A stretch of 16,408 nt of DNA from a virus (lineage: Duplodnaviria > Heunggongvirae > Uroviricota > Caudoviricetes), in the IMG/VR virus record IMGVR_UViG_2617271072_000010, positions 1 through 16,408 of that record; one strand, given 5' to 3'. Position 1 is the first letter of the stretch; each line of letters begins with the position of its first letter. The position numbers and the translations under genes were made by a program. The notes below the pieces were generated by a model. That model did not search any database and was not told the DNA's origin. It worked only from the letters and a program-made list of their open reading frames with translations. This document shows positions 1-15,688 of the stretch, piece after piece.

Positions 1-13
1 TATGGACACAGGC

Positions 14-880
14 CTAAGCGAGGTTCTTGTTTTCAAATTGTTCCGGACTGAGGCCGCCACACCAACTGTGCCGCCGCCACCGATTGTAATCACATTCGAT
101 ATAATTAAACACCGTTGCCCGCATTATTTCCCGGCTGATAAAGTGTTCTCCATGGATACATTCCACTTTCAGCGAATGAAAGAAGCTTTCCACGCAGGCA
201 TTATCGTAGCAGCAACCTTTTGCGCTCATACTTCCACGCAGATTATGCCGCTTCAGTTGCGCCTGATAATCTGCTGAACAGTACTGGCCTCCACGGTCCG
301 TGTGAACGATAACGTTCCGGGGCCTCTTACGCCGCCACAGCGCCATCTGCAGGGCATCGCAGGCCAGTTGCGCCGTCATGCGTGGCGACATTGACCAGCC
401 AATAACGGCACGTGACCACAGGTCAATGACCACTGCCAGATACAGCCAGCCTTCATCTGTACGTAAGTACGTGATGTCTCCTGCCCACTTCTGGTTCGGG
501 CCACTGGCGTAAAAATCCTGCTCCAACAGATTTTCTGACACAGGCAGGCCGTGTGCGCGGTAGCTGACCGGGCTGAACTTCCGGGAGGCCTTTGCCCTCA
601 GTCCCTGACGGCGCAGGCTTGCCGCCACGGTTTTTACGTTAAAGGGGTAACCCTGAGCACGCAGTTCATCCGTCAGGCGTGGGGCACCGTAACGCTGTTT
701 TGACCGGGTAAAAGCCGCGAGGACAACGCTGTCGCAGTGTTGGCGGAACTGCTGACGCGTGCTTATCCTTGTCCGCCGCTGACACCACGTATACCAGCCG
801 CTGCGGGCCACCCGGAGCACGCGGCACATTGCTTTGATGCTGAACTCAGCCTGATGTTTTTCAATAAAGACATACTTCAT
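14..880 (-). CDS. insF: IS3 transposase OrfB (InsF), DDE integrase-type catalytic domain, 288 aa
   Basis: Translation [36 protein letters not shown]... is recognised as IS3 InsF; overlaps the upstream orfA by 4 nt as expected for the IS3 frameshift arrangement. Confidence 0.92.
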
Positions 881-1176
881 TTCAGGCGCTTCGCGAAGTA
901 TGTCGCGGCCTTTTGGAGGATAGCCAGCTCTTCATCCCGTTCTGCCAGCTGGCGTTTGAGACGTGCAATCTCGGTAGACATCTCCAGTTCACGTTCAGAA
1001 GACGTCTGCTGATTTTGCTGTTTACTGCGCCAGTTGTAGAGTTGTGATTCATACAGGCTGAGTTCACGGGCTGCGGCAGTAACACCGATGCGTTCAGCAA
1101 GCTTCAGGGCTTCACTGCGAAATTCAGGCGAATGCTGTTTACGGGGTTTTTTACTGGTTGATACTGTTTTTGTCAT
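877..1176 (-). CDS. insE: IS3 transposase OrfA (InsE), HTH/leucine-zipper part, 99 aa
   Basis: Translation [50 protein letters not shown]... from the ATG at 1176, preceded by GAGGTGA; the ORF track starts three codons earlier at 1185. Confidence 0.9.
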
Positions 1177-1245
1177 GTGAGTCACCTCTGACTGAGAGTT
1201 TACTCACTTAGCCGCGTGTCCACTATTGCTGGGTAAGATCAACCT

Positions 1246-1800
1246 TTATTCGGTGAGTGCTTTGGTTAATCCGAGAAGTGGGATCTGTCCTTGCTTTTCG
1301 AGTCTCTCAATCTTCGCAAGTAGGACGGGCTTCTTCACCCTACCCCAACGATTCAGAAGACGGCCTGACATACTGGCCACATCCTTCTCCTTCATGAACT
1401 CCAGCATTACTGCATTTCGTTCTTCTTCAAACTGACGCCAGCCAACTTGAAGCATCGCGTACATCCAATTGAAAGCATTGATGTAAGCAATTTTGATCCG
1501 CATGGCTTCTTTCTTGGTGTAAGACATGACAAGAAGCATCAATCCATCCTTGCGGAGTCGGTAGAATTTCTGCGGTTTTCCATTCTGTAACTCATTGTTT
1601 CTATAGCAAAGCTCAAAGTTGAGCTTTGTATCAAACTCTGGTGGGCAAGCGTCTATGGTCCGTTCAATATCGCGAACTACGTTTTTCGACAGCTTACCGA
1701 ATGCTTTCGCCACCATAAACGAATCGGTAACCGGATCGTTGTTTGCTACAAAAATCAGGTCTCGGAAATCGATGCCGTTAACAACTGTTGGGTAGTTCAT
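1246..1800 (-). CDS. Rha-family phage regulatory (antirepressor-like) protein, 184 aa
   Basis: N-terminal segment ...PVTDSFMVAKAFGKLSKNVVRDIERTI... resembles the Phage_pRha domain. The stop codon lies 5 bp outside the IS3 terminus, so the ORF is not truncated by the IS. Confidence 0.6.
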   Translation of the reverse strand: MNYPTVVNGIDFRDLIFVANNDPVTDSFMVAKAFGKLSKNVVRDIERTIDACPPEFDTKLNFELCYRNNELQNGKPQKFYRLRKDGLMLLVMSYTKKEAMRIKIAYINAFNWMYAMLQVGWRQFEEERNAVMLEFMKEKDVASMSGRLLNRWGRVKKPVLLAKIERLEKQGQIPLLGLTKALTE

Positions 1801-1951
1801 AGCGTATACCTTACTTTGAGATGAACCTTTGCCGCATAGGAGATCAGCCCGTCGAGGCTCGCCAGCACTAACTAACTCCTCAAAGGCTCATTCCAAAAGG
1901 TTGGGTTCGACGTGATTGAATGCGCTGCGGTGCGCGGTGAAATGCAGATAC

Positions 1952-1978
1952 AAAAAAGCCCCGGTATTAAACCGAGGC
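1952..1978 (-). terminator. Rho-independent terminator candidate downstream of the lysis cassette
   Basis: Minus-strand hairpin GCCTCGG-TTTAATA-CCGGGGC (7-bp stem with one G-U) followed by TTTTTT. Confidence 0.4.
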
Positions 1979-2085
1979 TTATAATTCTTTCTCTTTTTCA
2001 GAGAATGCGGATTAATGAACGTGCTTCATTGCTGGTTTCATCACAGCTTGGCACATATTTACTACTTTCATTTCTCATTTTCAAT

Positions 2086-2301
2086 TTATTTTTTTGCACA
2101 GTTAGCCTGCACTGATTTATTGTGCACCAATATGTCCCGCTTCGTCTGCTTATCCAGCACGGCAATATCGTGTTCAGTGAGGTAGATAATGTCCACCCAG
2201 TCACAGGCTGTGTCCGTTAATTCAGGTTTTGCGGGTAAAGTTTTCGCGCAACTCACGGTCAACATCGTCATCAGGAAGATGATTAACAGTCTGCTGTACA
2301 C
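2086..2301 (-). CDS. Putative o-spanin-like lipoprotein (Rz1-like), 71 aa
   Basis: Signal peptide with a Cys at position 18 (MYSRLLIIFLMTMLTVSC); overlaps the 3' end of the preceding membrane-protein gene by 80 bp in another frame, the overlapped spanin arrangement. Not proline-rich, so only tentative. Confidence 0.4.
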   Translation of the reverse strand: MYSRLLIIFLMTMLTVSCAKTLPAKPELTDTACDWVDIIYLTEHDIAVLDKQTKRDILVHNKSVQANCAKK

Positions 2302-2491
2302 CCCTGGCTCCTTTTGTTGTCTCTACCCGGCGTTCAGCCACTGCTTCAGTGGCAGCGGCCTTTTCTTCGGTGCGTTGCTGGTTGGCTTTCGCTTCGGCTT
2401 TGCTGGTGCCGCGCGAATGGCCTAATCCAAATGCGGCGGCTATAGCAGCTAAAACAGCTGCAAGGAGTCCGATAATCATCTCAAGCGTCAT
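2222..2491 (-). CDS. Putative i-spanin-like protein (Rz-like), 89 aa
   Basis: One N-terminal transmembrane helix (IIGLLAAVLAAIAAAFGL) then a charged, Ala/Glu-rich tail; start overlaps the endolysin stop (ATGA). Shorter than typical Rz. Confidence 0.4.
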   Translation of the reverse strand: MTLEMIIGLLAAVLAAIAAAFGLGHSRGTSKAEAKANQQRTEEKAAATEAVAERRVETTKGARGVQQTVNHLPDDDVDRELRENFTRKT

Positions 2492-3030
2492 ATAACCACC
2501 CGCTCCTTTACCCAGCCATAAACAAACGTCTCGTTCGCGCTGCGCTGTTCTGCCAGTTCAAGATAACGTTGACCCTGGCTGCAATTCAGAGCCCGGAGCA
2601 TTACCAGCTCTCCTTCTTTCCCGCGTCGAGATAGGTAACTTTTTAGCGCACTAACAGTTCGCGGACCTATAAAACCATCCGCAATCAGTTCGGGATAGAG
2701 CGTGCCCTGAATGTTGAACACGTTCAGCCAGCGCTGAAACCACTTGGTCTGAACCGATGGCCCCATGTTTACGCCCGTGTCGCAGAGTTCAGCGGCGATG
2801 GCTGGTGACACCTCAGAAATAAGGTCGAATCGCGGGCCTGTCCAGTAGTCAGCCGTCAGAATATCCAGCGCCTGCTGGCGGGTGAGATCGCGCATATCTC
2901 CTACATACCCATGTGCCCGCGCCGTTGCCTGAGTGATACCCCAATTCGTTGGGCCGCCTTTATCGTCGGGATGGTTAACATAGCCGCCCTCTTTGCCAAG
3001 GATGGCATTGAAGATATCGTCTTTAGTCAT
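2488..3030 (-). CDS. Phage endolysin, glycoside hydrolase family 108 N-domain with a C-terminal peptidoglycan-binding domain, 180 aa
   Basis: N-terminal ...ILGKEGGYVNHPDDKGGPTNWGITQATA... matches the GH108 signature; C-terminal half resembles PG_binding_3. Start shares one nucleotide with the upstream stop (TAATG). Confidence 0.85.
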   Translation of the reverse strand: MTKDDIFNAILGKEGGYVNHPDDKGGPTNWGITQATARAHGYVGDMRDLTRQQALDILTADYWTGPRFDLISEVSPAIAAELCDTGVNMGPSVQTKWFQRWLNVFNIQGTLYPELIADGFIGPRTVSALKSYLSRRGKEGELVMLRALNCSQGQRYLELAEQRSANETFVYGWVKERVVI

Positions 3031-3311
3031 TAGTGCCTCAGATGATCAACCAGCCGCGCTACGTTGCCTCTGACGGCGACAAGCACAGACAGGAAAATAA
3101 TGTTGGCCCCGATAGTGGCCCAAGATGAATAAGGGTAGATACCGCACAGATACGCCAGCGGTACGGCGCTATAAATGACCGTAAGCAGCCAAGCTAAGCG
3201 AGATATCCACGGTCGATGTCGCGAATCGCCGCGACGGTAAAACATCAGGGTCAGCACTACCCCAGCGCAGAGTAACGCATTGATAGTTGCCGATGGGTCA
3301 TTTAGTACCAC
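3030..3311 (-). CDS. Holin-like small membrane protein (second holin or antiholin candidate), 93 aa
   Basis: Strongly hydrophobic with predicted transmembrane helices; sits immediately upstream of and coupled to the endolysin. Confidence 0.5.
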   Translation of the reverse strand: MVLNDPSATINALLCAGVVLTLMFYRRGDSRHRPWISRLAWLLTVIYSAVPLAYLCGIYPYSSWATIGANIIFLSVLVAVRGNVARLVDHLRH

Positions 3312-3684
3312 CTGAACCTCCCCGGCGCGTTATCAGCGCCACCAGCGAGCCAACATCCTGATTATTCAGGAACGTCAGGATTTTGACGGCTAAAGCAGAA
3401 ACGATTACGGCACCAATGGCATCCAGTGGTTTATCACTGTAGCCAGTAACCTGAGCCAGCTTTGAACCCACCAGCCCGGAACAAAGGATCCCCGCAATAT
3501 ACGACACCAGAAAATATGCCAGACGGCGCGCTGCACTCAGGTCCGCTGTGGTGGCAATGTAAAATACAGCCCCGGCAAACGCGCCAAAGACCACGCCGTA
3601 ATCGGTTCCGGACAGAAATCCATAGACGCTGGCCCCCGTCAGGACACCACCAGCCAGCCCAGTACCGGAAATCGGATCGGACAT
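3298..3684 (-). CDS. Holin-like membrane protein, 128 aa
   Basis: Gly/Ala-rich hydrophobic segments predicting about three transmembrane helices; first gene of the lysis cassette; RBS AGAGGGGG upstream of the ATG. Confidence 0.5.
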   Translation of the reverse strand: MSDPISGTGLAGGVLTGASVYGFLSGTDYGVVFGAFAGAVFYIATTADLSAARRLAYFLVSYIAGILCSGLVGSKLAQVTGYSDKPLDAIGAVIVSALAVKILTFLNNQDVGSLVALITRRGGSGGTK

Positions 3685-3731
3685 TTAGCCCCCTCTTAAT
3701 TGCTGTGAATCCTCTCAGGAATGAGGGGAAT

Positions 3732-3753
3732 AAAAAAGGCCGCATAAGCGACC
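3732..3753 (-). terminator. Rho-independent terminator candidate just upstream of the holin (tR'-like position)
   Basis: Minus-strand hairpin GGTCGC-TTAT-GCGGCC followed by TTTTTT; a second imperfect hairpin (3711-3728) follows. Confidence 0.4.
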
Positions 3754-3776
3754 TCGACATTTGGATGTTAGTTTTT

Positions 3777-3998
3777 TTATATCCAGTGGCTCATCAATTC
3801 CGGCTGTACCTTTTGAAGCACTTCTTGCGGTGATGGGGCTTCAATAATTTCTGAGAATACACATCCCCTATCATTGAGTCTATGCTTAAACCTTGCCATT
3901 TTAGCGCTATCTCTATCAAGATACTCTTCTGAAACAACAAGATGCTTCTCAACTTCCAAACCTTCTTCTTTATGCTGGTAAACGTAATAAAACCCCAT
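3777..3998 (-). CDS. Hypothetical small acidic protein, about 73 aa from the internal ATG
   Basis: The ORF track starts at 4013, but the second ATG (3998) has a good RBS (AAGGAG, 5-nt spacer). No family recognised. GC intermediate. Confidence 0.35.
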   Translation of the reverse strand: MGFYYVYQHKEEGLEVEKHLVVSEEYLDRDSAKMARFKHRLNDRGCVFSEIIEAPSPQEVLQKVQPELMSHWI

Positions 3999-4045
3999 GG
4001 AGTCTCCTTTCATTTAGGTGCCTGTTATGAATACCACCATAAAGC

Positions 4046-4067
4046 AAAAAACCCCGCCAAAGCGAGG
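4046..4067 (-). terminator. Rho-independent terminator candidate downstream of the nuclease-like cargo gene
   Basis: Minus-strand hairpin CCTCGC-TTTG-GCGGGG (one G-U) followed by TTTTTT. Confidence 0.45.
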
Positions 4068-4222
4068 TTTAAAATCTTTTAAGTACGTGTCCAAGTGACC
4101 AATCTTAACACAGTACAACAAGATTTGCGGACCGCGCTAGGGATTTCTTATTCTTTTTTACCAGATTAGATGCAGCTCGACATCTATAAAGAATCATTAT
4201 TATATTCAATCTTTAAATAAGT

Positions 4223-5072
4223 TCATAGTTGAACCCTAGCACTTCCACCATTTTGAACTGGTGAAATATAATCGGAGAACTCAGGATATAAGGAAATTTT
4301 ACCAGAGGTTAACATAAACATAAATGTACCGAAAAACTTCATGTGGAAATATTCATCATCTTTTGGAGTCAAGAAGCAACTTTTAAAGTTTTGCTGGCGA
4401 AGCATCGGGAATGGAAGTTTCACTCCATCCGGGGCTGAATAGGCAAGAAGCCCATCTTCGATACTAAGGATTAGGTTATGCCTATGCCTAAATTGTATTT
4501 CATCAGAGTAAAGATTATCTAGTTCATTTTCTATATTGCTTATATCAAAATCAAGCTTCTTACAGATCAATATGCTAGAATAAACATGAAAAGGGTTGTT
4601 TTCCGGATCAAAGTTAAAACTGCTAGAGTTAAAACTTAATGAAGGGTTTTTTATTCTCTCGGCGATTGCTTTATTTTTCGCCAGTTTGTTAATGGCGTCT
4701 CGAAAAGCAGCGCGAGATAAATTTGACTTAACCTCACCAATGCAGTAAACAGATTCAATTGGGAAAAACCTATGTTTATCTCCACCTTGAAAAAGTGGTG
4801 TCATTTTAGAATCAAAAATAACAACATCACACTGCGTGCTAATGTCATCCATCGCGGACATTAAAAAACCATTAGATATAGCAAGTCGCTGAGGAACTAT
4901 AAAGTTCAAAAAATCCCTTACTACCGACTCACGATATATTCCATATTCACCAGCATGAATAAGACGATTGTTTTCAGGATCATAAAAAACTTCAGTTGAA
5001 GTTGCGGAAAAAGAATTTTTTAAAAATATCTATTTTCTCACGGTATAGTGCATCAAATATCCTATTTGACAT
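4223..5072 (-). pseudogene. Low-GC cargo gene with a PD-(D/E)xK-like nuclease motif, family unassigned; split by a +1 frame change in a T5-A6-T5 run (reconstructed product about 283 aa)
   Basis: ATG at 5072 has a strong RBS (AGGAGG) and opens a 27-codon frame ending at 4992. The main frame (4223-4909, TTG start in the ORF track) is open back to 5029; one base fewer in the TTTTT/AAAAAA run near 5005-5020 joins them. Motif: ...CDVVIFD...(22 aa)...PIESVYCIGEVKSN (D then E-x-K). Confidence 0.45.
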
Positions 5073-5093
5073 ATTACCCTCCTGTATATATGA

Positions 5094-5129
5094 ATACCCA
5101 TGATACAAATATAGTCTCATCATGGGTAT
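5094..5129. promoter_or_regulatory. Perfect 11-bp inverted repeat (ATACCCATGAT-N14-ATCATGGGTAT) between Q and the cargo gene
   Basis: Read directly from the sequence; no adjacent T-run on either strand, so not an intrinsic terminator. This is where pR'/qut would be expected. Confidence 0.3.
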
Positions 5130-5146
5130 ACACTTCAGAGCATAAA

Positions 5147-5521
5147 TTAACTTATCTCAACATCCATATCTAGTGTTATGTCTAGCATAGAAAGGCAACC
5201 ATCGATGAACCCTTCAGCCATCTGCATTTCAATACGTATCAATTTCTCATCTTTTTTGCGAGCTCTTGCAAGCTTTCTTTTCGAGATGCCATACAGGTAA
5301 TGGGCCACAATCAAAGAATGCTCGTACGGTTTTCGCTTTTTAAGAAGAGCAAGACAACCTTCAATAATTAATGCATCACTATCTGAACAAGCCTGACGTG
5401 TTTTGCTTGTATAGGGAAGAAGCCCTTTAAACCCAGCAGCTATAGGAGAATAGTCTACTCCTGAACTATCACTCGCCGCCCATGCTCCCCAACGATCCAG
5501 AACCATTTGAATATCACGCAT
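5147..5521 (-). CDS. Late-gene antiterminator Q (DLP12 QuuD / Qin QuuQ type), about 124 aa
   Basis: MRDIQMVLDRWGAWAA...AAGFKGLL... resembles the Q antiterminators of E. coli lambdoid prophages as I recall them. ATG at 5521 has GGAG 7 nt upstream; the ORF track starts at a TTG at 5536. Confidence 0.8.
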   Translation of the reverse strand: MRDIQMVLDRWGAWAASDSSGVDYSPIAAGFKGLLPYTSKTRQACSDSDALIIEGCLALLKKRKPYEHSLIVAHYLYGISKRKLARARKKDEKLIRIEMQMAEGFIDGCLSMLDITLDMDVEIS

Positions 5522-5538
5522 CAACTTTCTCCACAAAA

Positions 5539-6534
5539 TCAGGCCAGCACGCCAATTGCCAGCGCACGATCGATAAAACGAAATATCAGCTCCAGCTGGG
5601 AGCCATACCTCTCTTCAAATGCCACGGTATCCGCATGCAGCTCGTCGTGATGCTTTCTGCACAAAGGCAACACAAAAAGGTCATGCGCTTTTGTACCCAT
5701 TCCACACTGACCGTGGCCTATCAGGTGGTGGGGATCATCAGCGGGCTTTCCACAACATGCACACGGCTGTGTCTTAACCCAGCGCGTGTACTTTTCATTA
5801 ACCCAGCGGCGACGTTTTGGGCGTAACATAAAAGACTCCGGCGACTCCGGATCCACTTTCAGCGCCAGCACCTTTTTCGCTTTATCCTGGATGATGCTGG
5901 TGGCAGGAATCGAAGGCACAAGGTCACTTTCCCGGGTGACAGACGGCACAACAGGCTTCGGTAATCTCAGTGCCTTACGGGCTGCACTTTCCGGTAAGGC
6001 ATCCGCCAGTTCATTACGAATCAGCCACCAGCACAGTTCCGGCATTGTCACAACGTGACTATCATCAAAACCGAGATCACGGCGCACAACAGATAACACC
6101 CAGCGGGCACAGTTATCCGTTGCCATTGATTCCAGCCGTTCCGTGAACTGATCGCGCAGCTGGTTATCGCAGTGCCAGCACAGACGGATTGCGCCCGGAG
6201 CGTGTCGCATTGTGGTCATGTTCTCGCTGTGCCAGTTGGAATGAGGCCACTGACAGCCCTTTTCACGAAGTAACCAGCTTTCAAGACATTCCACGCCACC
6301 AGCACGACGGATCACTGCCTCATTGCGGAACACGGCCCGAACGGCAGGATCATCCGCCAGCGGTTGTGATGCTGCCGGAACGGCACCACTGGCGAAAGAT
6401 GAATAACGTTCCGGCTCAGGCTCCAGCAGGACACGCCCCTGCATAAACAGGGGCATCAACTCTGAACCTGGTCTGAACAATACGATCCCCATACGCGGGG
6501 CAATTTCAGGGGTCAGTAGTGCTCTCACGGTCAC
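5539..6534 (-). CDS. DUF968-family prophage protein (YdfU-like), 331 aa
   Basis: Cys/His-rich C-terminal region (CACCGKPADDPHHLIGHG...LCRKHHDELH), the usual neighbour of Q in Qin-type prophages. Confidence 0.65.
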   Translation of the reverse strand: MTVRALLTPEIAPRMGIVLFRPGSELMPLFMQGRVLLEPEPERYSSFASGAVPAASQPLADDPAVRAVFRNEAVIRRAGGVECLESWLLREKGCQWPHSNWHSENMTTMRHAPGAIRLCWHCDNQLRDQFTERLESMATDNCARWVLSVVRRDLGFDDSHVVTMPELCWWLIRNELADALPESAARKALRLPKPVVPSVTRESDLVPSIPATSIIQDKAKKVLALKVDPESPESFMLRPKRRRWVNEKYTRWVKTQPCACCGKPADDPHHLIGHGQCGMGTKAHDLFVLPLCRKHHDELHADTVAFEERYGSQLELIFRFIDRALAIGVLA

Positions 6535-6558
6535 CTCAATGAACGGTATCGAGCAGCT

Positions 6559-7332
6559 TTAACAGCTCAGGGATCGGGATTCGAAGAAATGCGGCTGCGT
6601 CTCGCGCGGATTTGCGGGACTGGTGATGTTCTTGCCGAACATGCAACCTTTCGCTGTCAGCGACCAGAATTTTTTGATGTTGTTAATCGCGGTACGGCTG
6701 TATCGTTCGCGCTGCTCGACGATCCCCAGCTTCACCATCTGGTGATATGCCTGATTAGCCGTCAGGCGGATACCATACTGTTTCAGCAGTGCACTCAGTG
6801 ACAGTGTCGGGCGACTTGAGCCATCGTGTGCATCAGCAGGAGCATCAATGGCATAGCGCGGTGCCAGATTCGGTAAGCCAACAGCCTCCTGAAGTTTCTG
6901 ACAGGCTCCAAGCACTGAAGAGTTAGACAGATTTAACTCCCGGCGCATAAAGTCCAGCAGAATCACGCCAGCCTGCATCTTGTCAGCAGCCTGTCCGGAT
7001 AATTTTTCAGGTGCACTGGTTACCATGTCGAAAGTACGGATCACCTTCAGATGGAATGACGGGCTGATCCACATTGCATAGGCATACACCAGTTCTTTGC
7101 AGACATACGTCCCCTGGTTATTTCCGCCACGAATAACGTTAACTGGCTCTATATTGACCGAGTTGCAAATCTGCAACTCGCTTATTAAACGTTCAGTTTG
7201 CTCATTGCGGAGCCAGAATGCAGGCTTATGCTTATCCAGAGAACCGGCAGCCCTGTGCAGATCGTTCAGGCTGTAACGCCCATAAGCATCACGACGAACT
7301 TCAATACCATCAATGACCATCAGATTATTCAT
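6559..7332 (-). CDS. KilA-N plus KilAC (ANT) domain protein, antirepressor-like, about 257 aa
   Basis: MNNLMVIDGIEVRRDAYGRYSLNDLHRAAG...KPAFWLRNEQTERLISEL resembles the KilA-N domain; C-terminal half resembles KilAC. Start set at the ATG at 7332 (RBS AGGAG); the ORF track starts at 7365. Confidence 0.6.
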   Translation of the reverse strand: MNNLMVIDGIEVRRDAYGRYSLNDLHRAAGSLDKHKPAFWLRNEQTERLISELQICNSVNIEPVNVIRGGNNQGTYVCKELVYAYAMWISPSFHLKVIRTFDMVTSAPEKLSGQAADKMQAGVILLDFMRRELNLSNSSVLGACQKLQEAVGLPNLAPRYAIDAPADAHDGSSRPTLSLSALLKQYGIRLTANQAYHQMVKLGIVEQRERYSRTAINNIKKFWSLTAKGCMFGKNITSPANPRETQPHFFESRSLSC

Positions 7333-7351
7333 ACTTCGTTTCTCCTCTTGA

Positions 7352-7741
7352 TCAGGCGGCTGCACCCGCCGTTTTCTCGTACTTACTGATAGTGATCTCG
7401 ACCTTCCCTTCCGGGATAACCGGTCCCCACTCCACCAGCATTCTTTTCACCTGACTGTCGTCTTCCCACACACCCGCGTGGGTCAGGGCGTCAAACAGCG
7501 CCTTGTTATAGTTGTCCAGATCGCGGATCCGGTTATCCGGAGGAAACAACACGATCTCCACTGAAGCTGGTGCCGACGTTGGTTTCGGCAGACGGCGTAA
7601 CTGCTCAATGATGGCGGCACACGCCGCGCCCTGGAATTTACGCCCCGCCGCGCTTATCAGGCTCTTACCTGCAAAAGCCCCTTTGTTGGGGTGTCGCCAG
7701 TACGTGTTCACGCTGGGGGGAAACGGCAGGATCAGCTTCAT
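7352..7741 (-). CDS. rusA: RusA-family Holliday junction resolvase, 129 aa
   Basis: LPFPPSVNTYWRH... and ...RDLDNYNKALFDALTHAGVWEDDSQV match the RusA signature. Confidence 0.8.
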   Translation of the reverse strand: MKLILPFPPSVNTYWRHPNKGAFAGKSLISAAGRKFQGAACAAIIEQLRRLPKPTSAPASVEIVLFPPDNRIRDLDNYNKALFDALTHAGVWEDDSQVKRMLVEWGPVIPEGKVEITISKYEKTAGAAA

Positions 7742-8064
7742 ACTTTCAGCCCCCTCTCATGTAACCAGTGGGCTGCACGCAGCCTGGCGTTTTCCTCACC
7801 GGCAAGCAGTGCGCGGATAATCCCGACCACCTCGCTGTCGTCGTCCTTCACCGCGGTATGAAGAGTTATCCCCCGGGCCACGCCACGCTTTATCGTGATG
7901 ACGCCTTTTTTCTCCAGTGCGCGAAGATGCTCCACCGCTGCATTCACCGAACGGTATCCCAGCATGGTTGCCACCTCCTGATTGGTTGGCGGAAAGCCAC
8001 GTTCTTGCTGGTAAGAAATCAGCATATCCAGCACCTGCTGCTGTCATTGAGTTAACGTCGTCAT
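7738..8064 (-). pseudogene. LexA N-terminal DNA-binding-domain protein (no peptidase domain) with an in-frame TGA at codon 7
   Basis: Frame from the ATG at 8064 (coupled to the upstream stop as TAATG) reads MTTLTQ-stop-QQQVLDMLISYQQERGFPPTNQEVATMLGYRSVNAAVEHLRALEKKGVITIKRGVARGITL, parallel to E. coli LexA [68 protein letters not shown]. The TGA (8044-8046) sits where LexA has Arg. Reinitiation at GTG 8034 or ATG 8025 could still give a 95-98 aa product. Confidence 0.55.
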
Positions 8065-8558
8065 TAAGCCCCCACGTAATTCCCTGAAAGATACCATTCA
8101 TCACCCGATACAGCGCGCTTGCTGCTTTTCCGTAAGCACAGCTCACGACGCGCCAGAAAGTTGTTTCGTTCTGGCTGGGAGTGACTTTCACGGAATGCCA
8201 CCATCCACACCGTTGCAGCACGACGGTATAACCCCCTCGACTCCAGTTCTTCAGCCTGGCGGGTCAGGCATAAAATCACCCGGGGATCGTTAGTGCCGAC
8301 ATAGAAATTGCGCACAGGTCTGGTTTCTCGAACTGGTTGTGGTTCCGGTTCCTGCGCTCTCTCAGTCAGGCGCGGGAAATGTCTGCGTGTATCTCCTTCA
8401 CAACGGTGAGCCACACGCCCACTCTGACGTAACTTGCTTGCTGACTGCAGAACGCGCTGCCGTGAGTAACCAGCAAAAGCATCCGCAATGTCTCCGGAAG
8501 TACACCCCGGATGGGCTTCAATGAATTTCTGAACGTCATTTAACAGACTCATGATCAC
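8064..8558 (-). CDS. Hypothetical regulator with a PerC-like C-terminal region, 164 aa
   Basis: C-terminal ...AEELESRGLYRRAATVWMVAF... resembles the PerC/Pch family motif from memory; N-terminal half looks like a small winged-helix domain. Tentative. Confidence 0.4.
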   Translation of the reverse strand: MIMSLLNDVQKFIEAHPGCTSGDIADAFAGYSRQRVLQSASKLRQSGRVAHRCEGDTRRHFPRLTERAQEPEPQPVRETRPVRNFYVGTNDPRVILCLTRQAEELESRGLYRRAATVWMVAFRESHSQPERNNFLARRELCLRKSSKRAVSGDEWYLSGNYVGA

Positions 8559-9496
8559 CCCCTGAATCCTGCCGGGATCTGGCTGTAGTCCACGTTGTCG
8601 TAACTGGCTTTGAAGTACGGGTCTTCACGTTTTTCTGTGTGCGTGCTGACGGACGGCGATAAGCGCAGGGAAAGCTCATCCCATTTTTCCCGCAACTTCG
8701 ACGGGCTGAGCACGTTACGGCACCAGAACGGATCGCGGCTGACGCGGCTGTACATCTCGCAGATTTGTTTGTGAGTACGACCATCCTGCACACACATCAG
8801 GCGAATTTCGTTTGCCCAGGCTGTCCAGTTAGGTTCTTTGGGACGAACCACCTCGCCGTCACATTCGGCGGCCTGCTCGTACAGGGCGATGATTTTTTCC
8901 AGAGCCACTGTGCGCAGGTCAAATCATCCTGCGTTCCCCACTGGCGCTTTTTAGGGCTGAATACAACCGCATCAGGATGGCGAGTTAAAAACTCCTGTTC
9001 AGCCGTCTGCGTGTCCGGTTGCGAAGCGTCCGGACGAGAAGTTTTTTTTATCTGACGGATCATGTTTTGATTTTACTGACGGATCCCCGCCAGATTCTGA
9101 CGGGTGAAAACCCGCTTTTTTGCCAGATTTCGACGCATCAAATTTTGACGGGGCAGATTTTGATGCGTCAGATTTTGACGGGTCAGAATCTGACAGTTGA
9201 GAAAATGCCGCTGCCTGAAGCTTCGCAACGTTAAGCTGATAAACATTCGACGCATTACGGTTACCCTGGCGACGCGCCTTACGCGTTAACCAGCCTTCTG
9301 CTTCCAGCCGTGCGATAGCCGTTCTGACGGTACTCATCCCCGCGCCAATCTGACGGGCAATGGTTTCAATTGATGGCCAGCACACACCTTCGTCATTACT
9401 GAAATCAGCCAGGCGGGCCATAATTGCCACGCTGGATAACTTCATGCCTGATGCAGCGCAACCATCCCATACATAGCCGGTTAATTTAGTGCTCAT
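8555..9496 (-). pseudogene. Phage replication initiator (N-terminal winged-helix domain, iteron-encoded linker, DnaT-like C-terminal domain) split over three frames
   Basis: Fragments 8999-9496, 8797-9063 and 8555-8908. The N-terminus (...LADFSNDEGVCWPSIETIARQIGAGMSTVRTAIARLEAEGWL...) is replication-initiator-like; the C-terminus ends ...YSQIPAGFRG, as E. coli DnaT does (...SQIPPGFRG). One base fewer in the A8 run (9042-9049) and one more in the A6 run (8893-8898) give a single ORF of about 313 aa. Confidence 0.6.
9049..9199. repeat. Iteron-like tandem repeats (consensus CAGATTTTGACGG), probable phage origin inside the initiator gene
   Basis: Five contiguous copies with 14-16 bp period at 9124-9199 plus three more degenerate copies upstream (9051, 9073, 9091), flanked by a T8/A8 run at 9042-9049. 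They encode the SKSD/SKSA-rich linker. Confidence 0.6.
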
Positions 9497-9844
9497 GACC
9501 GACCTCTATTTCCCTGAATTTACGACGAAACTGTTCGAGCGGACTGAAGCATTCATGCTCATAACCTTCGCGGAGGTAGATAACCCGTTGTGTTTCCGGC
9601 TCCCAACGAATGACTCTGACGGGCACTCCGTAGTGATCTTTGAACCAGCGGTTAACTTGTCGCAAAGGACTGTCTCCTTCTGCCGGTTGAAATCACCCAC
9701 AGCCCACTCTGCAAAGCTGTGGGTTACAATTTCCCTGTCACCTGGTACATTCACTGCATAGCAATATTCCACCTTCGCTTTTCCACCCGGTACAGGAAGC
9801 GCAATCAGTTGCGAGCGACGGTAGTGTGTTGTTAAACTGTTCAT
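9487..9844 (-). CDS. Hypothetical early protein; coding signal changes frame near 9690 (one broken gene or two overlapping small genes)
   Basis: The frame from the ATG at 9844 is protein-like for about 63 codons, then becomes Ser-rich and low-complexity; another frame reads ...[56 protein letters not shown] and ends overlapping the initiator start. Confidence 0.3.
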
Positions 9845-9913
9845 GCGTTAGTTTCTCCACAACCAGAAGCAATCGACGCCACGACGCCCGGAGCTGCACA
9901 CTCGCGGGCGTCA

Positions 9914-10411
9914 TTACTTTCTGAAATGCAAAAAATTTTTGTAGACAAGTGCTGCATGCTCCTGCAGCTTCGAAATTGAGAGATACAGCTCGTCGTTAAT
10001 TGCTGTCTTCTCATGCGGTTCCACTACACCGTCTTCGATTGCTGAACGAATCTGTTTTGAATAACTGCCGATCTGTTCAATGACTTCCAGCAGACGCTGG
10101 TTAATATCGGCGTTGTCCACATCCTCGACGTCAGGAAGAGACACAAAGACGCCATTTGCAGACTGCGCCACAGCATCAGCAATGAAGTGAGTGCCACCAG
10201 CACGCTGTAAAACCATTGCCCATCCCAGCGGGAAAATCTGATCGCCATCTGCACGAAGGCGGTTGAATAAAGCGTTTTCTGTTACATCGAGCCAGTCAGC
10301 CGCTTCAGCGTAACCACCCGGCAACGCCGCGATAGTTTTTCTGACAGCTTTCACGTACCACTCAGGCTGTTTTTCTATTTTCCAGTGATGCTTACCCACG
10401 ATTAGCCTCAT
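9914..10411 (-). CDS. CII-like phage regulatory protein (CP76/YdaT-like), 165 aa
   Basis: Sits in the cII position after cro; segment ...GYAEAADWLDVTENALFNRLRADGDQIFPLGWAMVLQRAGG... parallels the lambda CII HTH region. Family name recalled, not searched. Confidence 0.5.
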   Translation of the reverse strand: MRLIVGKHHWKIEKQPEWYVKAVRKTIAALPGGYAEAADWLDVTENALFNRLRADGDQIFPLGWAMVLQRAGGTHFIADAVAQSANGVFVSLPDVEDVDNADINQRLLEVIEQIGSYSKQIRSAIEDGVVEPHEKTAINDELYLSISKLQEHAALVYKNFLHFRK

Positions 10412-10502
10412 CGTTCTGTGGTTAAAAATTGAAAGTGTTCTGCTAATCTTTCGGATAGATATCCGGTCTTAAGTCAGATTTCGTAATTGCACCTGACGTG
10501 CA

Positions 10503-10643
10503 TTACTCAAGTTTTTTAGCCAGCACAAAACTGGCTTTTTTATAGCCATTGAAAACCAGCCGTAAGTAGCCAGGTGTTGAGCCAACTTTTCCGGCCAACT
10601 CGCCCTGCTGTTCTTTGGTTAAAGAGTCCCAATACGCTTTCAT
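10503..10643 (-). CDS. Cro-like small HTH protein, 46 aa
   Basis: MKAYWDSLTKEQQGELAGKVGSTPGYLRLVFNGYKKASFVLAKKLE; ATG at 10643 preceded by GGAGG; divergent from the repressor across the operator region. The ORF track extends it to 10982, antisense to cI, which is unlikely to be real. Confidence 0.5.
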   Translation of the reverse strand: MKAYWDSLTKEQQGELAGKVGSTPGYLRLVFNGYKKASFVLAKKLE

Positions 10644-10733
10644 ACAATATGTACCTCCGGTGTACATATTACATGATTGAAATGAACCTTCAAGATACTT
10701 GTACCTTAACGGTACAAGGGTTTTAATTTCGTT
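10644..10733. promoter_or_regulatory. Immunity-region operator/promoter segment with two palindromic operators and divergent promoters
   Basis: O1 ATATGTAC-N7-GTACATAT (10647-10669) and O2 CTTGTACC-N5-GGTACAAG (10698-10718), both perfect. Minus-strand promoter TTGAAG-N16-TAATAT (10688-10693, 10666-10671) overlaps O1. No Shine-Dalgarno before the repressor ATG. Confidence 0.5.
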
Positions 10734-11406
10734 ATGAAAACAATCCATGACATCCGGCGGTCTAACGCCAGAAAACTGAGAGATGGTGTTGGCGGGAATT
10801 CTTCCTTTGCCACTATGATTGATCGCGAGCCAACCCAGACCAGCAGGTTTATGGGAGATGGTGCTACTAAAAATATCGGTGACAGCATGGCACGACACAT
10901 CGAAAAATGTTTCGACCTGCCTGTCGGATGGCTCGATCAAGAACACCAGACAACGAACATCACAAAAAACCTGATGTTTCAATCACTAATAAACAAATCA
11001 CATTAGTCCCTGTCATATCATGGTACAGGCCGGAGCATGGAAAGAAGTTGGATATTCTGAGGTTGATTTGAGCACAGCAGAAACGTATCCCTGCCCTGTA
11101 CCCTGTGGGGAAATGACTTATATCTTGCGGGTGATAGGTGATTCAATGATTGATGAGTACCGCCCGGGAGACATGATTTTTGTCGATCCTGAAGTACCTG
11201 CCTGCCACGGTGACGACGTTATTGCATTGATGCACGATACAGGTGAAACCACCTTCAAAAGGTTGATAGAAGATGGGACACAGCGTTATCTCAAAGCGTT
11301 AAACCCAAACTGGCCTGAGCCTTACATTAAGATCAACGGTAATTGCTCTATAATTGGTACAGTGATTTTCTCAGGAAAACCAAGAAGATACAAAATCAAA
11401 GCCTAA
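10734..11406 (+). pseudogene. CI-like repressor (HTH domain plus S24 LexA-like peptidase domain) split over three frames
   Basis: 10734-11006 encodes the HTH domain (...IGDSMARHIEKCFDLPVGWLDQE...); 11020-11406 encodes the S24 domain (MVQAGAWKEV...RVIGDSM...TTFKRL). A third frame between them reads ...KQITLVPVISW. One extra A in the A6 run (10964-10969) and one extra base near 11021 would give an intact repressor of about 222 aa. Confidence 0.7.
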
Positions 11407-11418
11407 TCAATGTTTATG

Positions 11419-11441
11419 AACCTGCTTCGGCAGGTTTTTTT
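11419..11441 (+). terminator. Rho-independent terminator after the repressor gene
   Basis: ACCTGC-TTCG-GCAGGT perfect 6-bp stem followed by T6-T7, 13 bp after the stop codon. Confidence 0.6.
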
Positions 11442-11445
11442 ATAC

Positions 11446-11478
11446 TTGACAATGTACCTTTGAGATACATAATGTACC
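11446..11478 (+). promoter_or_regulatory. pL-like promoter candidate with operator-like motifs
   Basis: TTGACA (11446-11451), 16-bp spacer, CATAAT (11468-11473). ATGTACC occurs twice and TACAT-a-ATGTA forms a palindrome (11466-11476), the same TGTAC core as the operators at 10647-10718. Confidence 0.35.
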
Positions 11479-11558
11479 CAAGCGAAACAACGAACAGGCA
11501 GGACGCCCACGAAGTAGCCGCCTGGGGCATATGAAGTCCAGGATGATTCGTTAGCAAC

Positions 11559-11580
11559 AAAAAAGCGCCCTATAGGACGC
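11559..11580 (-). terminator. Terminator-like hairpin downstream of the minus-strand membrane-protein gene
   Basis: Minus strand GCGTCC-TATA-GGGCGC (one G-U) followed by TTTTTT; 234 bp from the gene end, so the assignment is weak. Confidence 0.3.
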
Positions 11581-11813
11581 TTCGCTCTTTAACAATCTGG
11601 AGATCCCCAACACTTAACGGGATTTTGGCTTCGGTTCTGGCGGTGAAGGACGAGGTTTTAAGGGTATATGATCCTCTTTCCATGTATATATAAATGCATT
11701 CATTTGGTCATCTCAATATAGAATCCATTATTAATTCATACTCATAAAGCCTGTGTGACTTTGGTGATGGTGGTCTGGGCTTTGGAGGTACATGGTTAGG
11801 GATTATGGGAATT

Positions 11814-12293
11814 CTATTTGTCATTATTACACCTTTTTGACCGAGGCAAATCTCCAGCAAACCATGCGATAACGCTATGCATGAATGATATTTCTGACTC
11901 ATCAACACGTCCCAGCGCAATACAGGTCCGTTTGAACGCAGCATCTTGTAAAGATCTCCATGGATTACTATCAGCGTCTTGAACCTTTAAAAACCGAGTG
12001 CGTAGTTCGTCATCAGAAAGGGAGGAAAACTCAACAATCAACCTTTTATACTGTCGCATCTGTTCCTTTGATAAGCCAGCTTCCTGCCCAAATTGGTATA
12101 CCAATTGAAGCACCGACAAAATAGCTACAGATGCGCCAAAAATAAACATATTGCTATATGGCGCAAAAACAGAAAAGCCCAAGACAATGAGAACAAGAGT
12201 TATGCTCTTGTCTATCCGATTTAAAAGGGTGTAATTCATTTTCTCAAGAAAGAAAGAATAATGAATATCGAATGCTAGATCGTCTCGAGTCAT
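11814..12293 (-). CDS. Low-GC membrane protein (two predicted TM helices, soluble C-terminal domain), 159 aa; superinfection-exclusion-type moron candidate
   Basis: ATG at 12293 with RBS AAGGGA; hydrophobic segments ITLVLIVLGFSVFAPY and FIFGASVAILSVLQLVYQF; opposite strand to the surrounding operon, adjacent to the immunity region. No family recognised. Confidence 0.5.
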   Translation of the reverse strand: MTRDDLAFDIHYSFFLEKMNYTLLNRIDKSITLVLIVLGFSVFAPYSNMFIFGASVAILSVLQLVYQFGQEAGLSKEQMRQYKRLIVEFSSLSDDELRTRFLKVQDADSNPWRSLQDAAFKRTCIALGRVDESEISFMHSVIAWFAGDLPRSKRCNNDK

Positions 12294-12399
12294 CTCTATT
12301 CCCTTACATTTCAGGTTTCGGCTCAGGGATCGGTGCTGGTCTCTGATTTACCGGAACATGAAATTTTTCATTGCTATCTACGTACATATTTCCTTCCTA

Positions 12400-12449
12400 C
12401 CTGTTGTTGGGATATCCAGATTATACCGAATCCTTGTTGTTGGGGAATA
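12400..12449. repeat. Two direct repeats CC(T)TGTTGTTGGG(G)A about 32 bp apart in a non-coding stretch
   Basis: Copies at 12400-12414 and 12432-12449, read directly from the sequence; function unknown. Confidence 0.3.
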
Positions 12450-12673
12450 ACCAGGTCCACCTCGCCTGATGTGGCTAAAAGCAGGCACATAACAGCTAAG
12501 TATTTTCAACCAGAGAGAATCCTTAGCGTTGTGGTGAATGCGGCTCAGCGCACGCGGGTTAAGGTTGAGGCTGACAGTCGACCTTCTGTGGATACCCACC
12601 CGTCTGGTGTACAACCTTCGCCAGGCACCGGGAGGCACCCGGCACCACAACTTTATGCTGTGTGTTGTCTTGG

Positions 12674-12718
12674 CGGTACCAGCTTGTACCCTTGCTTCCG
12701 GCTGGTACCGTCCTTTTT
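12674..12718 (+). other. 10-bp perfect stem (CGGTACCAGC / GCTGGTACCG) with a 17-nt loop, followed by T5; possible 3' end of a plus-strand RNA
   Basis: Read directly from the sequence; lies inside the GC-rich 12300-12900 stretch where every overlapping ORF translates to low-complexity sequence. Confidence 0.3.
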
Positions 12719-12930
12719 ACAAAACAGAGAAGAGCATCATCGGACGACGGGCTCATAACCCAATCCATCCGGGCGGCTGCCACCACAGGTGTTCTTCTCT
12801 GTTTTGTGGAGAAACTAACCGCCCTACGGGGGCATTTATGGAAATGTAATTGACTCAATAATCGCCGGACGGTGAGGGCTTCCTTTTACCCGAATTCAGC
12901 GCGGTGCAGCGCATATACGTGGAGAACAAA

Positions 12931-13437
12931 ATGTCATTTATTAAAACTTTTTCCGGGAAGCATTTTTATTATGACAGGATAAATAAAGACGACATCGTTA
13001 TTAACGATATCGCGGTTTCCCTTTCAAATATCTGTCGCTTTGCAGGACATCTTTCACACTTCTACAGCGTCGCCCAACATGCGGTGCTTTGCAGCCAGCT
13101 GGTACCGCAGGAATTTGCTTTTGAAGCGTTAATGCATGATGCAACAGAAGCGTATTGCCAGGACATCCCGGCTCCACTGAAACGCCTTCTTCCTGACTAT
13201 AAACGGATGGAAGAAAAAATAGACGCCGTAATCCGTGAAAAATACGGGTTACCCCCGGTTATGAGCACGCCTGTGAAATATGCCGATCTCATCATGCTGG
13301 CAACCGAACGCCGCGATCTCGGGCTTGATGATGGCTCTTTCTGGCCTGTACTGGAAGGCATCCCGGCAACAGAGATGTTCAACGTGATTCCACTGGCACC
13401 GGGCCAGGCCTACGGGATGTTTATGGAACGTTTTTAA
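12931..13437 (+). CDS. HD-domain phosphohydrolase (YfdR-like), about 168 aa
   Basis: H...HD motif (RFAGHLSHFYSVAQHAVL...ALMHDATEAYCQDIP); start set at the ATG at 12931 (GGAG 7 nt upstream) rather than the ORF-track start at 12904. YfdR resemblance is from memory. Confidence 0.7.
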   Translation: MSFIKTFSGKHFYYDRINKDDIVINDIAVSLSNICRFAGHLSHFYSVAQHAVLCSQLVPQEFAFEALMHDATEAYCQDIPAPLKRLLPDYKRMEEKIDAVIREKYGLPPVMSTPVKYADLIMLATERRDLGLDDGSFWPVLEGIPATEMFNVIPLAPGQAYGMFMERF

Positions 13438-13458
13438 CGAGTTATCGGAGTTACGCAA

Positions 13459-13821
13459 ATGCGCATGAATGTTTTCGAAATGGAAGGGTTTCTTCGCGGG
13501 AAATGTGTACCGCGAGATCTGAAAGTGAACGAAACAAATGCTGAGTACCTAGTACGTAAATTCAACGCGCTTGAAGCTAAATGTGCGGCACTGGAAAACA
13601 AAATAATACCAGTGTCAGCTGAACTGCCACCAGCAAATGAAAGTGTTCTGTTATTTGATGCTAGTGGAGAAGGCTGGCTGATTGGCTGGCGTTCTCTCTG
13701 GTACACATGGGGGCAAAAAGAAACCGGAGAATGGCAGTGGACATTTCAGGTCGGGGACCTTGAAAACGTCAATATCACTCACTGGGCAGTAATGCCGAAA
13801 GCACCGGAGACTAAGAAATGA
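13459..13821 (+). CDS. DUF551-domain prophage protein (YfdS-like), 120 aa
   Basis: C-terminal ...GEWQWTFQVGDLENVNITHWAVMPKAPE matches the DUF551 signature common in enterobacterial prophage early regions. Confidence 0.6.
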   Translation: MRMNVFEMEGFLRGKCVPRDLKVNETNAEYLVRKFNALEAKCAALENKIIPVSAELPPANESVLLFDASGEGWLIGWRSLWYTWGQKETGEWQWTFQVGDLENVNITHWAVMPKAPETKK

Positions 13822-14033
13822 GCGTGATAAAAACTCATACAGGAATTGTTATCACCCGAGACGGTGAAAAGCGGATGAAATTACATTCCACTGAAACGTC
13901 CTGGGTTGCCGGACGTTGTGAATCCTACGACAAAAAGACTGGTTACCGTTGGGGGGCGCCAAACATGCGTCGCCGTCTGATCCTGGACAGCATCAGGCCA
14001 ATAAAACAGGTAGCAACCAGAGAACAAAATTAA
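13818..14033 (+). CDS. Hypothetical small protein, 71 aa
   Basis: ORF coupled to the upstream gene (start overlaps the upstream stop by 4 nt); no family recognised. Confidence 0.35.
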   Translation: MSVIKTHTGIVITRDGEKRMKLHSTETSWVAGRCESYDKKTGYRWGAPNMRRRLILDSIRPIKQVATREQN

Positions 14034-14094
14034 TTATCAGGACTGGAATTTGATATTACTGCCCGAGTGCAGCGGGCTAAGTGGAGAAACAGCC

Positions 14095-14304
14095 ATGGCA
14101 AAACTAATGAAAGCGAGCCAATGGGGACGCCGTGAATTCTCTAATGGCTCAATTCCTGACAACCGAACGATAAAACGTTGGGTCGAGAACGGTCTACTCA
14201 TGGGACGCATCGTGGACGGTTCTGTTTTTGTCTGCGAAACAGAAAAATGGGGAGTCGACTCAATGGTTAGTCAAGCTGTTCGCAAGTTAATAAACGAGGG
14301 GTGA
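14095..14304 (+). CDS. xis: Excisionase (lambda Xis-like), about 69 aa
   Basis: ...QWGRREFSNGSIPDNRTIKRWVENGLLMGRIVDGSVFVCETE... parallels lambda Xis (...WNARQRRPRSLETVRRWVRECRIF...); start set at the ATG at 14095 (GGAG upstream); immediately precedes the integrase. Confidence 0.6.
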   Translation: MAKLMKASQWGRREFSNGSIPDNRTIKRWVENGLLMGRIVDGSVFVCETEKWGVDSMVSQAVRKLINEG

Positions 14305-15489
14305 CCATGGCGGCAAGGCCACGTAAAAAAGAATACAGACATCTTCCTGATTATCTGATTTTTGATAAAGATCGAGGTGTTTATAAATTCACACTTATTA
14401 CTGGAAAGAAGAAAAATATAGGTAAGGATAGGGCAATAGCCATTGCAATCGCCAGAGAGTACAACCTGAGGATGAGAGCAGAATTATCTCCATCAGTAGA
14501 AAATCTTATTAGAGAATCTGGCGGTGTTATCGGAGAAGCAAAACCATTTGCTGAACATGTTGATCACATAATGACCCGGATTATCGAAGACGAACGTCCT
14601 TCCCAGAGCACCTTAGATGACTGGAAAAATGACGCTCTACGCGTAAAAGCGTTTTTTCGTAAATGTTCCGGCATGCGATATCGAACTTGAACACGTTAAT
14701 ACCTACATCAACAAATATCATGCCAGCGCATCCGCAAATGTGCAGAACAGAAAGGTCAGCTTTCTTAAAAAAGTTGTTCTCTTATGCGGTCGATGAATCA
14801 CTAATGCTGGATAACCCGGCCATCAGAAAAAAAATGCGTAGGACTGATGAGAAGAAAAAGACGGCGCCTGTCACTCGAGCATTTTATAGCTATCAGGCAG
14901 GCCGCTGCACCATGGTTAAGAACAGCAATGGACCTAGCATTGCAAACTACACATGCACGACTCGAAGTATCGCGAATCCGTTACTCAATTCGCGAACCTA
15001 AAGACGGTATATGTGGATGTGTCTGGTTCGAACAACCACAAAATGGCATATATGGGACGCTTTACATCCACAGGCAAAAAGTGCAAAAAAAAAGAGGCGT
15101 CACACGTTGCAATACCAATTGGTGAAGAGTTGAAACGGATAATTGACGATAGCCGAGATAATGTGGCTAGTCCGTTTGTCGTTCACAGAATCCCAGAACG
15201 CCAAGTTAAACGAAGCAAAGAGGTTTCACATCCGACACAAGTTGCACCAGACTATTTGAGTCGATCGTTTTCAGCAACGCGAGACAAGCTAGGTTTATGC
15301 GACAATCTACCGATGGATGAAAGACCAACCTTTCATGAAATCAGAGCTCTGGCAGCGCATCTTTTCGATCAGCAGGGTATCGATCCCCAAGGACGAATGG
15401 CACATAGCGACGCTCAGTCGACTAAGATTTACACTCAAAACCACATTAATTGGATTGTCGTTCCACACGGGGAAATCAAAACTGGTTAA
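14301..15489 (+). pseudogene. int: Lambda-family tyrosine integrase split over four frame segments
   Basis: The N-terminal arm-binding region and the C-terminal catalytic region (...PTFHEIRALAAHLF...AHSDAQSTKIY...) are recognisable and follow lambda Int in order, but the frame changes at T6 (14652-14657), A6 (14767-14772), A8 (14827-14834) and A9 (15085-15093). Confidence 0.8.
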
Positions 15490-15688
15490 AATTGCATTAA
15501 TTCAGATTTTATCCTTGCATTGCTATGGTACAGACCTAAACAAGCATGTGCCAAAAACAGGCTATTGTAGGGATACTCACATCTTTCAGGTATTATATTT
15601 TGCATAACCGAAAGTGAGGCAACAAACAGAAATGCCATGCTTTTAAACGCGATACTTCACAATAAGAGTTAAGGTAAAAGGAGCGATA

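Follow-up and report, generated by a model that had tools for sequence, protein, structure and literature searches.

The LexA repressor of Escherichia coli joins an N-terminal winged helix-turn-helix (HTH) DNA-binding domain to an Ala84-Gly85 cleavage site, an S24 domain, and the residues Ser119 and Lys156. Its helix 3 contacts DNA through S39, N41, A42, E44, and E45 (PMC3091678). Phages can encode the DNA-binding domain without the autocleavage domain, and gp6 of Bacillus phage GIL01, a tectivirus with a Gram-positive host, demonstrates that a domain of this kind can function as a regulator: this 66-amino-acid protein, a truncated LexA homologue, binds over the -35 element of the late promoter P3 and activates P3 (PMC6182141, Fornelos et al. 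2018), acting together with host LexA and gp7. In enterobacterial genomes, prophage genes become pseudogenes through point nonsense mutations, insertion sequence (IS) insertions, and IS-adjacent deletions alike, with related strains displaying successive stages. We analyzed a gene for a LexA DNA-binding domain (referred to here as lexA-like) on the minus strand of a 16,408-nucleotide stretch of viral DNA (positions 1 to 16,408 of IMG/VR virus record IMGVR_UViG_2617271072_000010, hereafter the window), in which a TGA interrupts the reading frame at codon 7. We conclude, with a probability of about 0.85, that this nonsense allele is specific to one lineage, that the gene it affects is a very common early (nin-region) gene of lambdoid prophages, that the allele is most likely null or strongly hypomorphic, and that it reflects ordinary prophage gene decay.

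Translation of the lexA-like frame gave MTTLTQ before the premature stop and QQQVLDMLISYQQERGFPPTNQEVATMLGYRSVNAAVEHLRALEKKGVITIKRGVARGITLHTAVKDDDSEVVGIIRALLAGEENARLRAAHWLHERGLKV between that stop and the natural one. Four complete E. coli genomes (1008S13, isolate 362, VTB97448v, and MINF_2E) contained the same gene with TGC at codon 7. Alleles were then counted in complete E. coli genomes by means of exact 31-mers centred on this codon. With identical 31-nt flanks, TGC was present at 2502 places in 1999 genomes and TGT at 58 places in 56 genomes, and TGA was found at 3 places in 3 genomes: EC_J_9 from swine, B1S11 from duck, and 2196 from human, which are independent complete assemblies carrying the same prophage adjoining yejO. 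The prophage of MINF_2E, located at the same chromosomal site, differed from the window across 15.7 kb by exactly one substitution, the TGC/TGA base itself. The TGA is derived from the Cys codon TGC by a single C-to-A transversion. The earlier note on this DNA, made from the sequence alone, had described the TGA as replacing an Arg of LexA. In the alignment the codon falls opposite Arg7 of LexA, but its direct ancestor is Cys TGC; Arg at codon 7 was seen in remoter homologues only, the E. coli clade having Cys, and an ancestral Arg codon (CGA to TGA) was ruled out by the TGC of the parent. MINF_2E on one side and the window, EC_J_9, B1S11, and 2196 on the other form a natural near-isogenic pair (TGC versus TGA) that is convenient for probing the role of the protein.

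The intact parent protein, WP_044527515.1, belongs together with WP_000210186.1 and WP_000210187.1 to a family of 108-amino-acid proteins annotated as 'LexA family transcriptional regulator', and the window holds the same gene in the same synteny. The window copy differs from the WP_044527515.1 alleles by the single base at codon 7, so that the full-length protein is not encoded; identity to family members is 83-97%. At a DNA identity of at least 90%, copies were found in 2233 of 5426 complete E. coli genomes (~41%). The family was also present in 61 phage records, among them SfII, SfIV, SfV, cdtI, mEp460, Ayreon, and many Stx2a and Stx2c phages, with remoter members in Citrobacter, Salmonella, Hafnia, and Klebsiella. 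The gene occupied the early-right (nin-like) region just upstream of rusA, which it overlapped, both in phages and in E. coli genomes; in the latter rusA was always its neighbour on one side, and a PerC-like gene or a phage Dam methyltransferase gene preceded it. A full-text literature search returned no experimental study of this family of prophage proteins consisting of the LexA domain only, the one analogue to emerge from it being gp6 of GIL01; two apparent hits turned out to be passing mentions of no relevance.

The natural start of the gene was established from the family. In RefSeq, the coding sequence of the intact relatives begins at the ATG within the TAATG overlap with the preceding gene, and the DNA from this ATG to codon 6 was invariant across the family, even where the upstream gene was a different one. 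Residues 1-13 were conserved, with L4, T5, Q8, and Q9 invariant in an alignment of the family with LexA and L12 also invariant inside the family. PHROG 362 ('transcriptional repressor'), whose profile covers gene positions 1-106, matched the intact parent over residues 1-108 (E=1.5e-58) and matched the 95-amino-acid remnant downstream of the stop at profile positions 14-106 (E=4.6e-50). A natural start at the downstream ATG was ruled out by the conserved N-terminus and by a PHROG profile that begins at residue 1. Since the upstream ATG is where the homologues begin, with residues 1-13 conserved, the TGA is a lesion and not the natural architecture of the gene. The earlier note had taken it for a lesion unless homologues were to start downstream with no conservation upstream of the stop, a scenario that the conservation seen in the family excludes. 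The open reading frame (ORF) that runs uninterrupted from the overlapping ATG in homologues, through TGC or TGT at codon 7, is broken at that codon in the window copy. In its other particulars the description given in that note held: each element was found where it had been placed, the TAATG that signals translational coupling to the upstream gene is present in the sequence, and the location of the gene in a prophage was borne out by the relatives annotated in RefSeq.

The likeness of the lexA-like protein to LexA is far beyond chance. The intact parent matched Pfam LexA_DNA_bind (PF01726) over model positions 1-65 of 65 (E=2.5e-19; E=1.3e-20 with Arg put at codon 7), and phmmer aligned it without gaps to 1lea, the N-terminal domain of LexA from E. 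coli, across residues 2-70 (E=5.4e-16). An AlphaFold model of the intact protein (mean pLDDT, the predicted local distance difference test score, 77.6) was superposed by Foldseek on the LexA of the LexA-DNA complex 3jso with a root-mean-square deviation of 1.3 A over 68 residues at 50% identity. In spite of the shared winged HTH, the protein is not a LexA repressor. It scored 69.5 bits against the LexA equivalog TIGR00498, whose cut-off is 110.95, and matched model positions 1-91 of 203; no Pfam Peptidase_S24 match was found in the protein, and the chain ends at residue 108. These results agree with the previous reading that the gene parallels the first 70 residues of LexA and has no autocleavage domain. 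The model of the intact protein has helices at 6-22, 28-35, and 40-52 and strands at 56-58 and 66-68 that would form a two-strand wing. Two further predicted helices (74-87 and 91-103) form a hairpin at the place where LexA has its hinge and S24 domain with the cleavage site and catalytic residues. As modelled, the intact 108-amino-acid protein is a LexA-type winged HTH followed by a family-specific two-helix hairpin (74-103) that replaces the S24 autocleavage and dimerisation domain, and the hairpin is a candidate dimerisation element.

Comparison of related strains placed the lexA-like nonsense mutation in a series of lesions of the same prophage. VTB97448v carried the prophage with an intact ymfT, a gene for a cro-like HTH protein, and with no IS3 at the site of the Rha-family regulator gene (window 1246-1800). 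In MINF_2E, the ymfT nonsense mutation and the IS3 insertion abutting the Rha gene were both present and the lexA-like gene was intact. RefSeq labels ymfT an incomplete pseudogene in EC_J_9, B1S11, 2196, and MINF_2E. The ymfT nonsense mutation and the IS3 preceded the lexA-like nonsense mutation, because the window shares both with MINF_2E, whose lexA-like gene is intact. EC_J_9 and B1S11 had the TGA and, in addition, an IS3-adjacent deletion in which the 3' end of kilA-N, DUF968, the gene for the antiterminator Q, the lysis genes, and Rha have been lost. As read from these strains, the order of events is an intact prophage, then the ymfT nonsense mutation and IS3, then the lexA-like nonsense mutation, and then the large deletion; the lexA-like stop is one step in the decay of a resident prophage that had become defective before it. 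Other IS3-family elements were seen between rusA and kilA-N in VTB97448v and beside the integrase gene in MINF_2E; this prophage has been struck repeatedly by IS elements. The KilA-N gene (window 6559-7365, minus strand) bears the label 'frameshifted' in MINF_2E and 2196, where its sequence is that of the window, and in the window it is a single 268-codon ORF starting at GTG.

Disrupted alleles of the lexA-like gene were not confined to this prophage. Other, independently disrupted alleles on E. coli and Citrobacter contigs had frameshifts near residue 61-64, in-frame deletions within the HTH, or N-terminal losses, which suggests that the gene is often lost from resident prophages. Proteins P0089, P0094, P0106, P0077, P0104, P0066, P0113, and P0129 represent such disrupted alleles; those with N-terminal losses also begin with MLISY, and some of the eight may be assembly errors. 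The window allele is an already catalogued case of decay, in a prophage gene that is known and very widespread, and is nothing new as a system. It is less unusual than the earlier note implied: the decay allele is rare, but its gene ranks among the commonest prophage genes of E. coli, and the prophage has other lesions. The gene is already annotated by RefSeq, Pfam, and PHROGs, and for the window the allele matters little. The case is not distinctive among pseudogenised prophages, except that the lesion is masked in automatic annotation, where a shorter ORF is called. The parent family is mildly interesting in that phages encoding Shiga toxin or cdt and Shigella serotype-converting phages carry a predicted LexA DNA-binding domain that RecA could not inactivate.

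The positions of the features are collected in Table 1.

Table 1. Features of the lexA-like locus and of other lesions in the same prophage (window coordinates).
Feature	Position	Strand	Description and basis
lexA-like gene	7738..8064	-	LexA DNA-binding domain only; 108 codons in intact parent WP_044527515.1, interrupted at codon 7; ATG 8064-8062, natural stop TGA 7740-7738 (translation, Pfam, PHROG, PDB)
Premature TGA, codon 7	8044..8046	-	In-frame TGA 8046-8044; coding-strand C-to-A; window + strand 8044 is T, G in relatives
TAATG overlap	8062..8066	-	yfdN-like TAA stop (8066-8064) and lexA-like ATG with one base in common; translational coupling signal (sequence)
GTG, codon 11	8032..8034	-	In frame; candidate restart, 98-amino-acid product (ORF list; RefSeq WP_273924950.1)
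ATG, codon 14	8023..8025	-	In frame; candidate restart, 95-amino-acid product (RefSeq WP_249528771.1)
AGGTG	8032..8036	-	Shine-Dalgarno-like pentamer 6 nt 5' of ATG 8025, overlaps the GTG (sequence reading; putative function)
ATGA overlap	7738..7741	-	lexA-like stop and rusA start; downstream translational coupling (sequence; same in all annotated relatives)
yfdN-like gene	8064..8552	-	Upstream gene, PerC family, 162 amino acids from ATG 8552 (Pfam PerC E=1.7e-9; RefSeq WP_072132566.1)
rusA	7352..7741	-	Downstream gene, Holliday-junction resolvase, 129 amino acids (Pfam RusA E=9.4e-15; RefSeq WP_033866646.1)
ymfT	10443..10643	-	cro-like YdaS-family HTH gene; CAA-to-TAA nonsense at codon 47 of 66 (10505-10503), compared with intact ymfT in VTB97448v
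Partial IS3 element	1..1241		Inserted beside Rha, in the late region of the prophage; 100% identical to the B1S11 IS3 copy, transposase annotated in relatives

With both overlaps in place, the lexA-like gene would be translated as the middle member of a coupled chain that runs from yfdN (or dam) through lexA-like to rusA. In the TGA allele, ribosomes would mostly terminate after MTTLTQ. What output is left would at most be a restart product, from ATG 8025 or GTG 8034, or a few percent of full-length protein with Trp at position 7 made by UGA readthrough. Since most ribosomes would stop after six codons and leave only restart or few-percent readthrough, the allele is expected to be null or a strong hypomorph. 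The GTG lies 9 nt past the TGA, and the sequence context shows no Shine-Dalgarno-like sequence upstream of it; the ATG lies 18 nt past the TGA and is preceded by the AGGTG, a pentamer complementary to the 3' end of 16S rRNA. That these two codons could serve for restart, as had been proposed, is plausible, and they are exactly the two starts that RefSeq calls in the three genomes with the TGA: WP_273924950.1 (98 amino acids, GTG) in B1S11 and WP_249528771.1 (95 amino acids, ATG) in EC_J_9 and 2196. The calls, made by the Prokaryotic Genome Annotation Pipeline (PGAP) at 9076-9363 of L001, 9027-9323 of L004, and 9036-9323 of L005, thus place two different starts on identical DNA and leave the upstream in-frame stop unflagged; they are software choices and no evidence of expression. 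In the protein collection, the 95- and 98-amino-acid ORF products occurred on 18 and 16 contigs respectively, and the exact intact parent on 317 contigs. With the stop unflagged, the lesion is invisible in protein-level catalogues; as the pipelines report a shortened 'LexA family' protein in its place, a pangenome or presence/absence analysis would score the gene as intact.

What the intact family binds was considered by comparison with LexA and gp6. The family keeps S39, N41, A42, and E45, four of the five residues with which helix 3 of LexA contacts DNA, and has Val in place of E44; on this basis a CTGT-like half-site is a plausible target. Judged by profile comparison, GIL01 gp6 is the closest characterised analogue: hhalign aligned the family profile with gp6 at a probability of 95.9% (E=5e-9, 35% identity across 55 columns), whereas BLASTP of the lexA-like protein against gp6 gave no alignment. 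The two differ in that gp6 has no C-terminal hairpin and works with host LexA and gp7 as partners. The analogy with gp6 and the recognition-helix residues that are kept suggest that the intact proteins are probably dimeric regulators, insensitive to RecA, which would bind operators of the phage or of the SOS type. An uncleavable SOS-box binder, as the earlier note had envisaged, is a plausible hypothesis for the family, and in the window would concern a probably dead gene. The search for LexA boxes recommended there was run on the window and gave no canonical SOS box: no exact match to CTGT-N8-ACAG was present, one-mismatch sites numbered 9 against 5.07 expected (nine were reached in 16 of 200 shuffles), and the best CTG-N10-CAG site matched 12 of 20 consensus positions, a score equalled by 37% of shuffles. 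These exact, one-mismatch, and consensus scans, set against shuffled sequence, showed no convincing SOS box in the window.

Some of the evidence weighs against simple decay to a null or hypomorphic allele. RefSeq attaches no pseudogene flag to the gene, and the 95- and 98-amino-acid proteins are still above the Pfam LexA_DNA_bind threshold (E=2.3e-13 and 3.4e-14 for the two truncated products, 50-53 bits against a cut-off of 23.7). A truncated protein from ATG 8025, with its reasonable Shine-Dalgarno-like sequence, could be made and be partly active, since helices 2 and 3, wing, and hairpin would all be left in it. In addition, the window and VTB97448v (L011) differed over ~15 kb by three substitutions only, at positions 8044, 8831, and 10505. 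Two of them are nonsense mutations in small DNA-binding regulators (lexA-like and ymfT) and one is synonymous (CCG/CCT at 8831), which hints at selection rather than neutral decay.

Selection would mean that silencing of the lexA-like gene, along with ymfT, protects lysogens from being killed by the prophage or from a harmful uncleavable LexA-like binder. Besides the two nonsense mutations, the independent IS3 insertions and the deletion in the same prophage of related strains are consistent with this account. However, the numbers of events are tiny, and the window was picked for one of the two nonsense codons; once that choice is allowed for, two substitutions remain, and a single nonsense mutation in two has no significance. 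In addition, the allele is confined to one prophage lineage. We consider selection unlikely, and in any case it would amount to prophage domestication, which is compatible with loss of function. If the stop were an adaptive domestication, the LexA-domain-only protein could be needed for lytic development, like gp6, or could be a RecA-insensitive SOS-box binder harmful to the host; we regard this too as rather improbable.

The second alternative is that the TGA allele still gives a working, N-terminally shortened DNA-binding regulator of 95-98 amino acids by restart at ATG 8025 or GTG 8034. The spacing of the restart codons from the stop, the pentamer before the ATG, the 'LexA family' labels that PGAP gives to these ORFs, and the retained helices 2 and 3, wing, and C-terminal hairpin that still satisfy the Pfam model are in its favor, and restart would preserve the coupling to rusA. 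Yet products without residues 1-10 or 1-13 would begin 5 to 8 residues into the 17-residue helix 1 of the AlphaFold model (8 residues being lost with the ATG start) and would lack the family-invariant positions L4, T5, Q8, and Q9, which are invariant with LexA as well, and, in the shorter product, L12. The minimal functional LexA-domain protein, gp6, by contrast retains this segment, keeping the whole of helix 1 and starting only two residues before the LT motif. The PGAP start calls are inconsistent on identical DNA, and the allele is present in only 3 of about 2560 copies. A functional shortened regulator is accordingly a doubtful outcome, and loss of function is the reading we retain.

Decoding of the TGA, either by selenocysteine recoding or by efficient readthrough to the full-length protein, was given very little credence. 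About 2560 homologous copies have Cys where the window has UGA, which is the classic signature of a selenoprotein, and the base that follows it is C, which is reportedly the weakest termination context for UGA in E. coli. But alleles that encode Cys have the very same RNA downstream of this codon, and no selenocysteine insertion sequence (SECIS) element could therefore have co-evolved with the UGA. Of the features expected of a bacterial selenoprotein gene, the Cys-aligned in-frame UGA was present and a SECIS stem-loop right after it was not: the fold of 8070-7985 was no better than that of shuffled sequences (z=-0.74), with just a 5-bp hairpin directly after the UGA, and Rfam gave no family match anywhere in the window. 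A selenocysteine or structured recoding signal was rejected on these three grounds. Basal UGA readthrough by Trp-tRNA amounts to about 2-4% in E. coli K-12 (PMC10570021), and a basal rate of this order does not amount to programmed recoding.

That the TGA is an error of sequencing or assembly, an explanation that the earlier note had left to be checked, is hardly conceivable: although the window assembly does hold errors, these are all homopolymer-length indels and none falls in the lexA-like gene, and because the same substitution, outside homopolymers, is found in the three independent complete genomes from swine, duck, and human, the TGA is a real lineage-specific allele. The records of the 95- and 98-amino-acid products on 18 and 16 contigs point the same way. 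The errors concern 12 one-base homopolymer differences from other assemblies, at window positions 5021, 8898, 9049, 9940, 10969, 11023, 12824, 13435, 14657, 14772, 14859, and 15093. Up to five independent assemblies agreed against the window at these sites (site 5021 is absent from EC_J_9 and B1S11), and the same assembly comparisons contained 0 to 1 substitutions. The 12 differences are almost certainly assembly errors of the window source. They split several genes artificially, for example the gene for the CI-like repressor ymfK (10734-11406, plus strand), a replication/HTH gene (~8555-9456, minus strand), and a DUF6602 gene (~4223-5070, minus strand).

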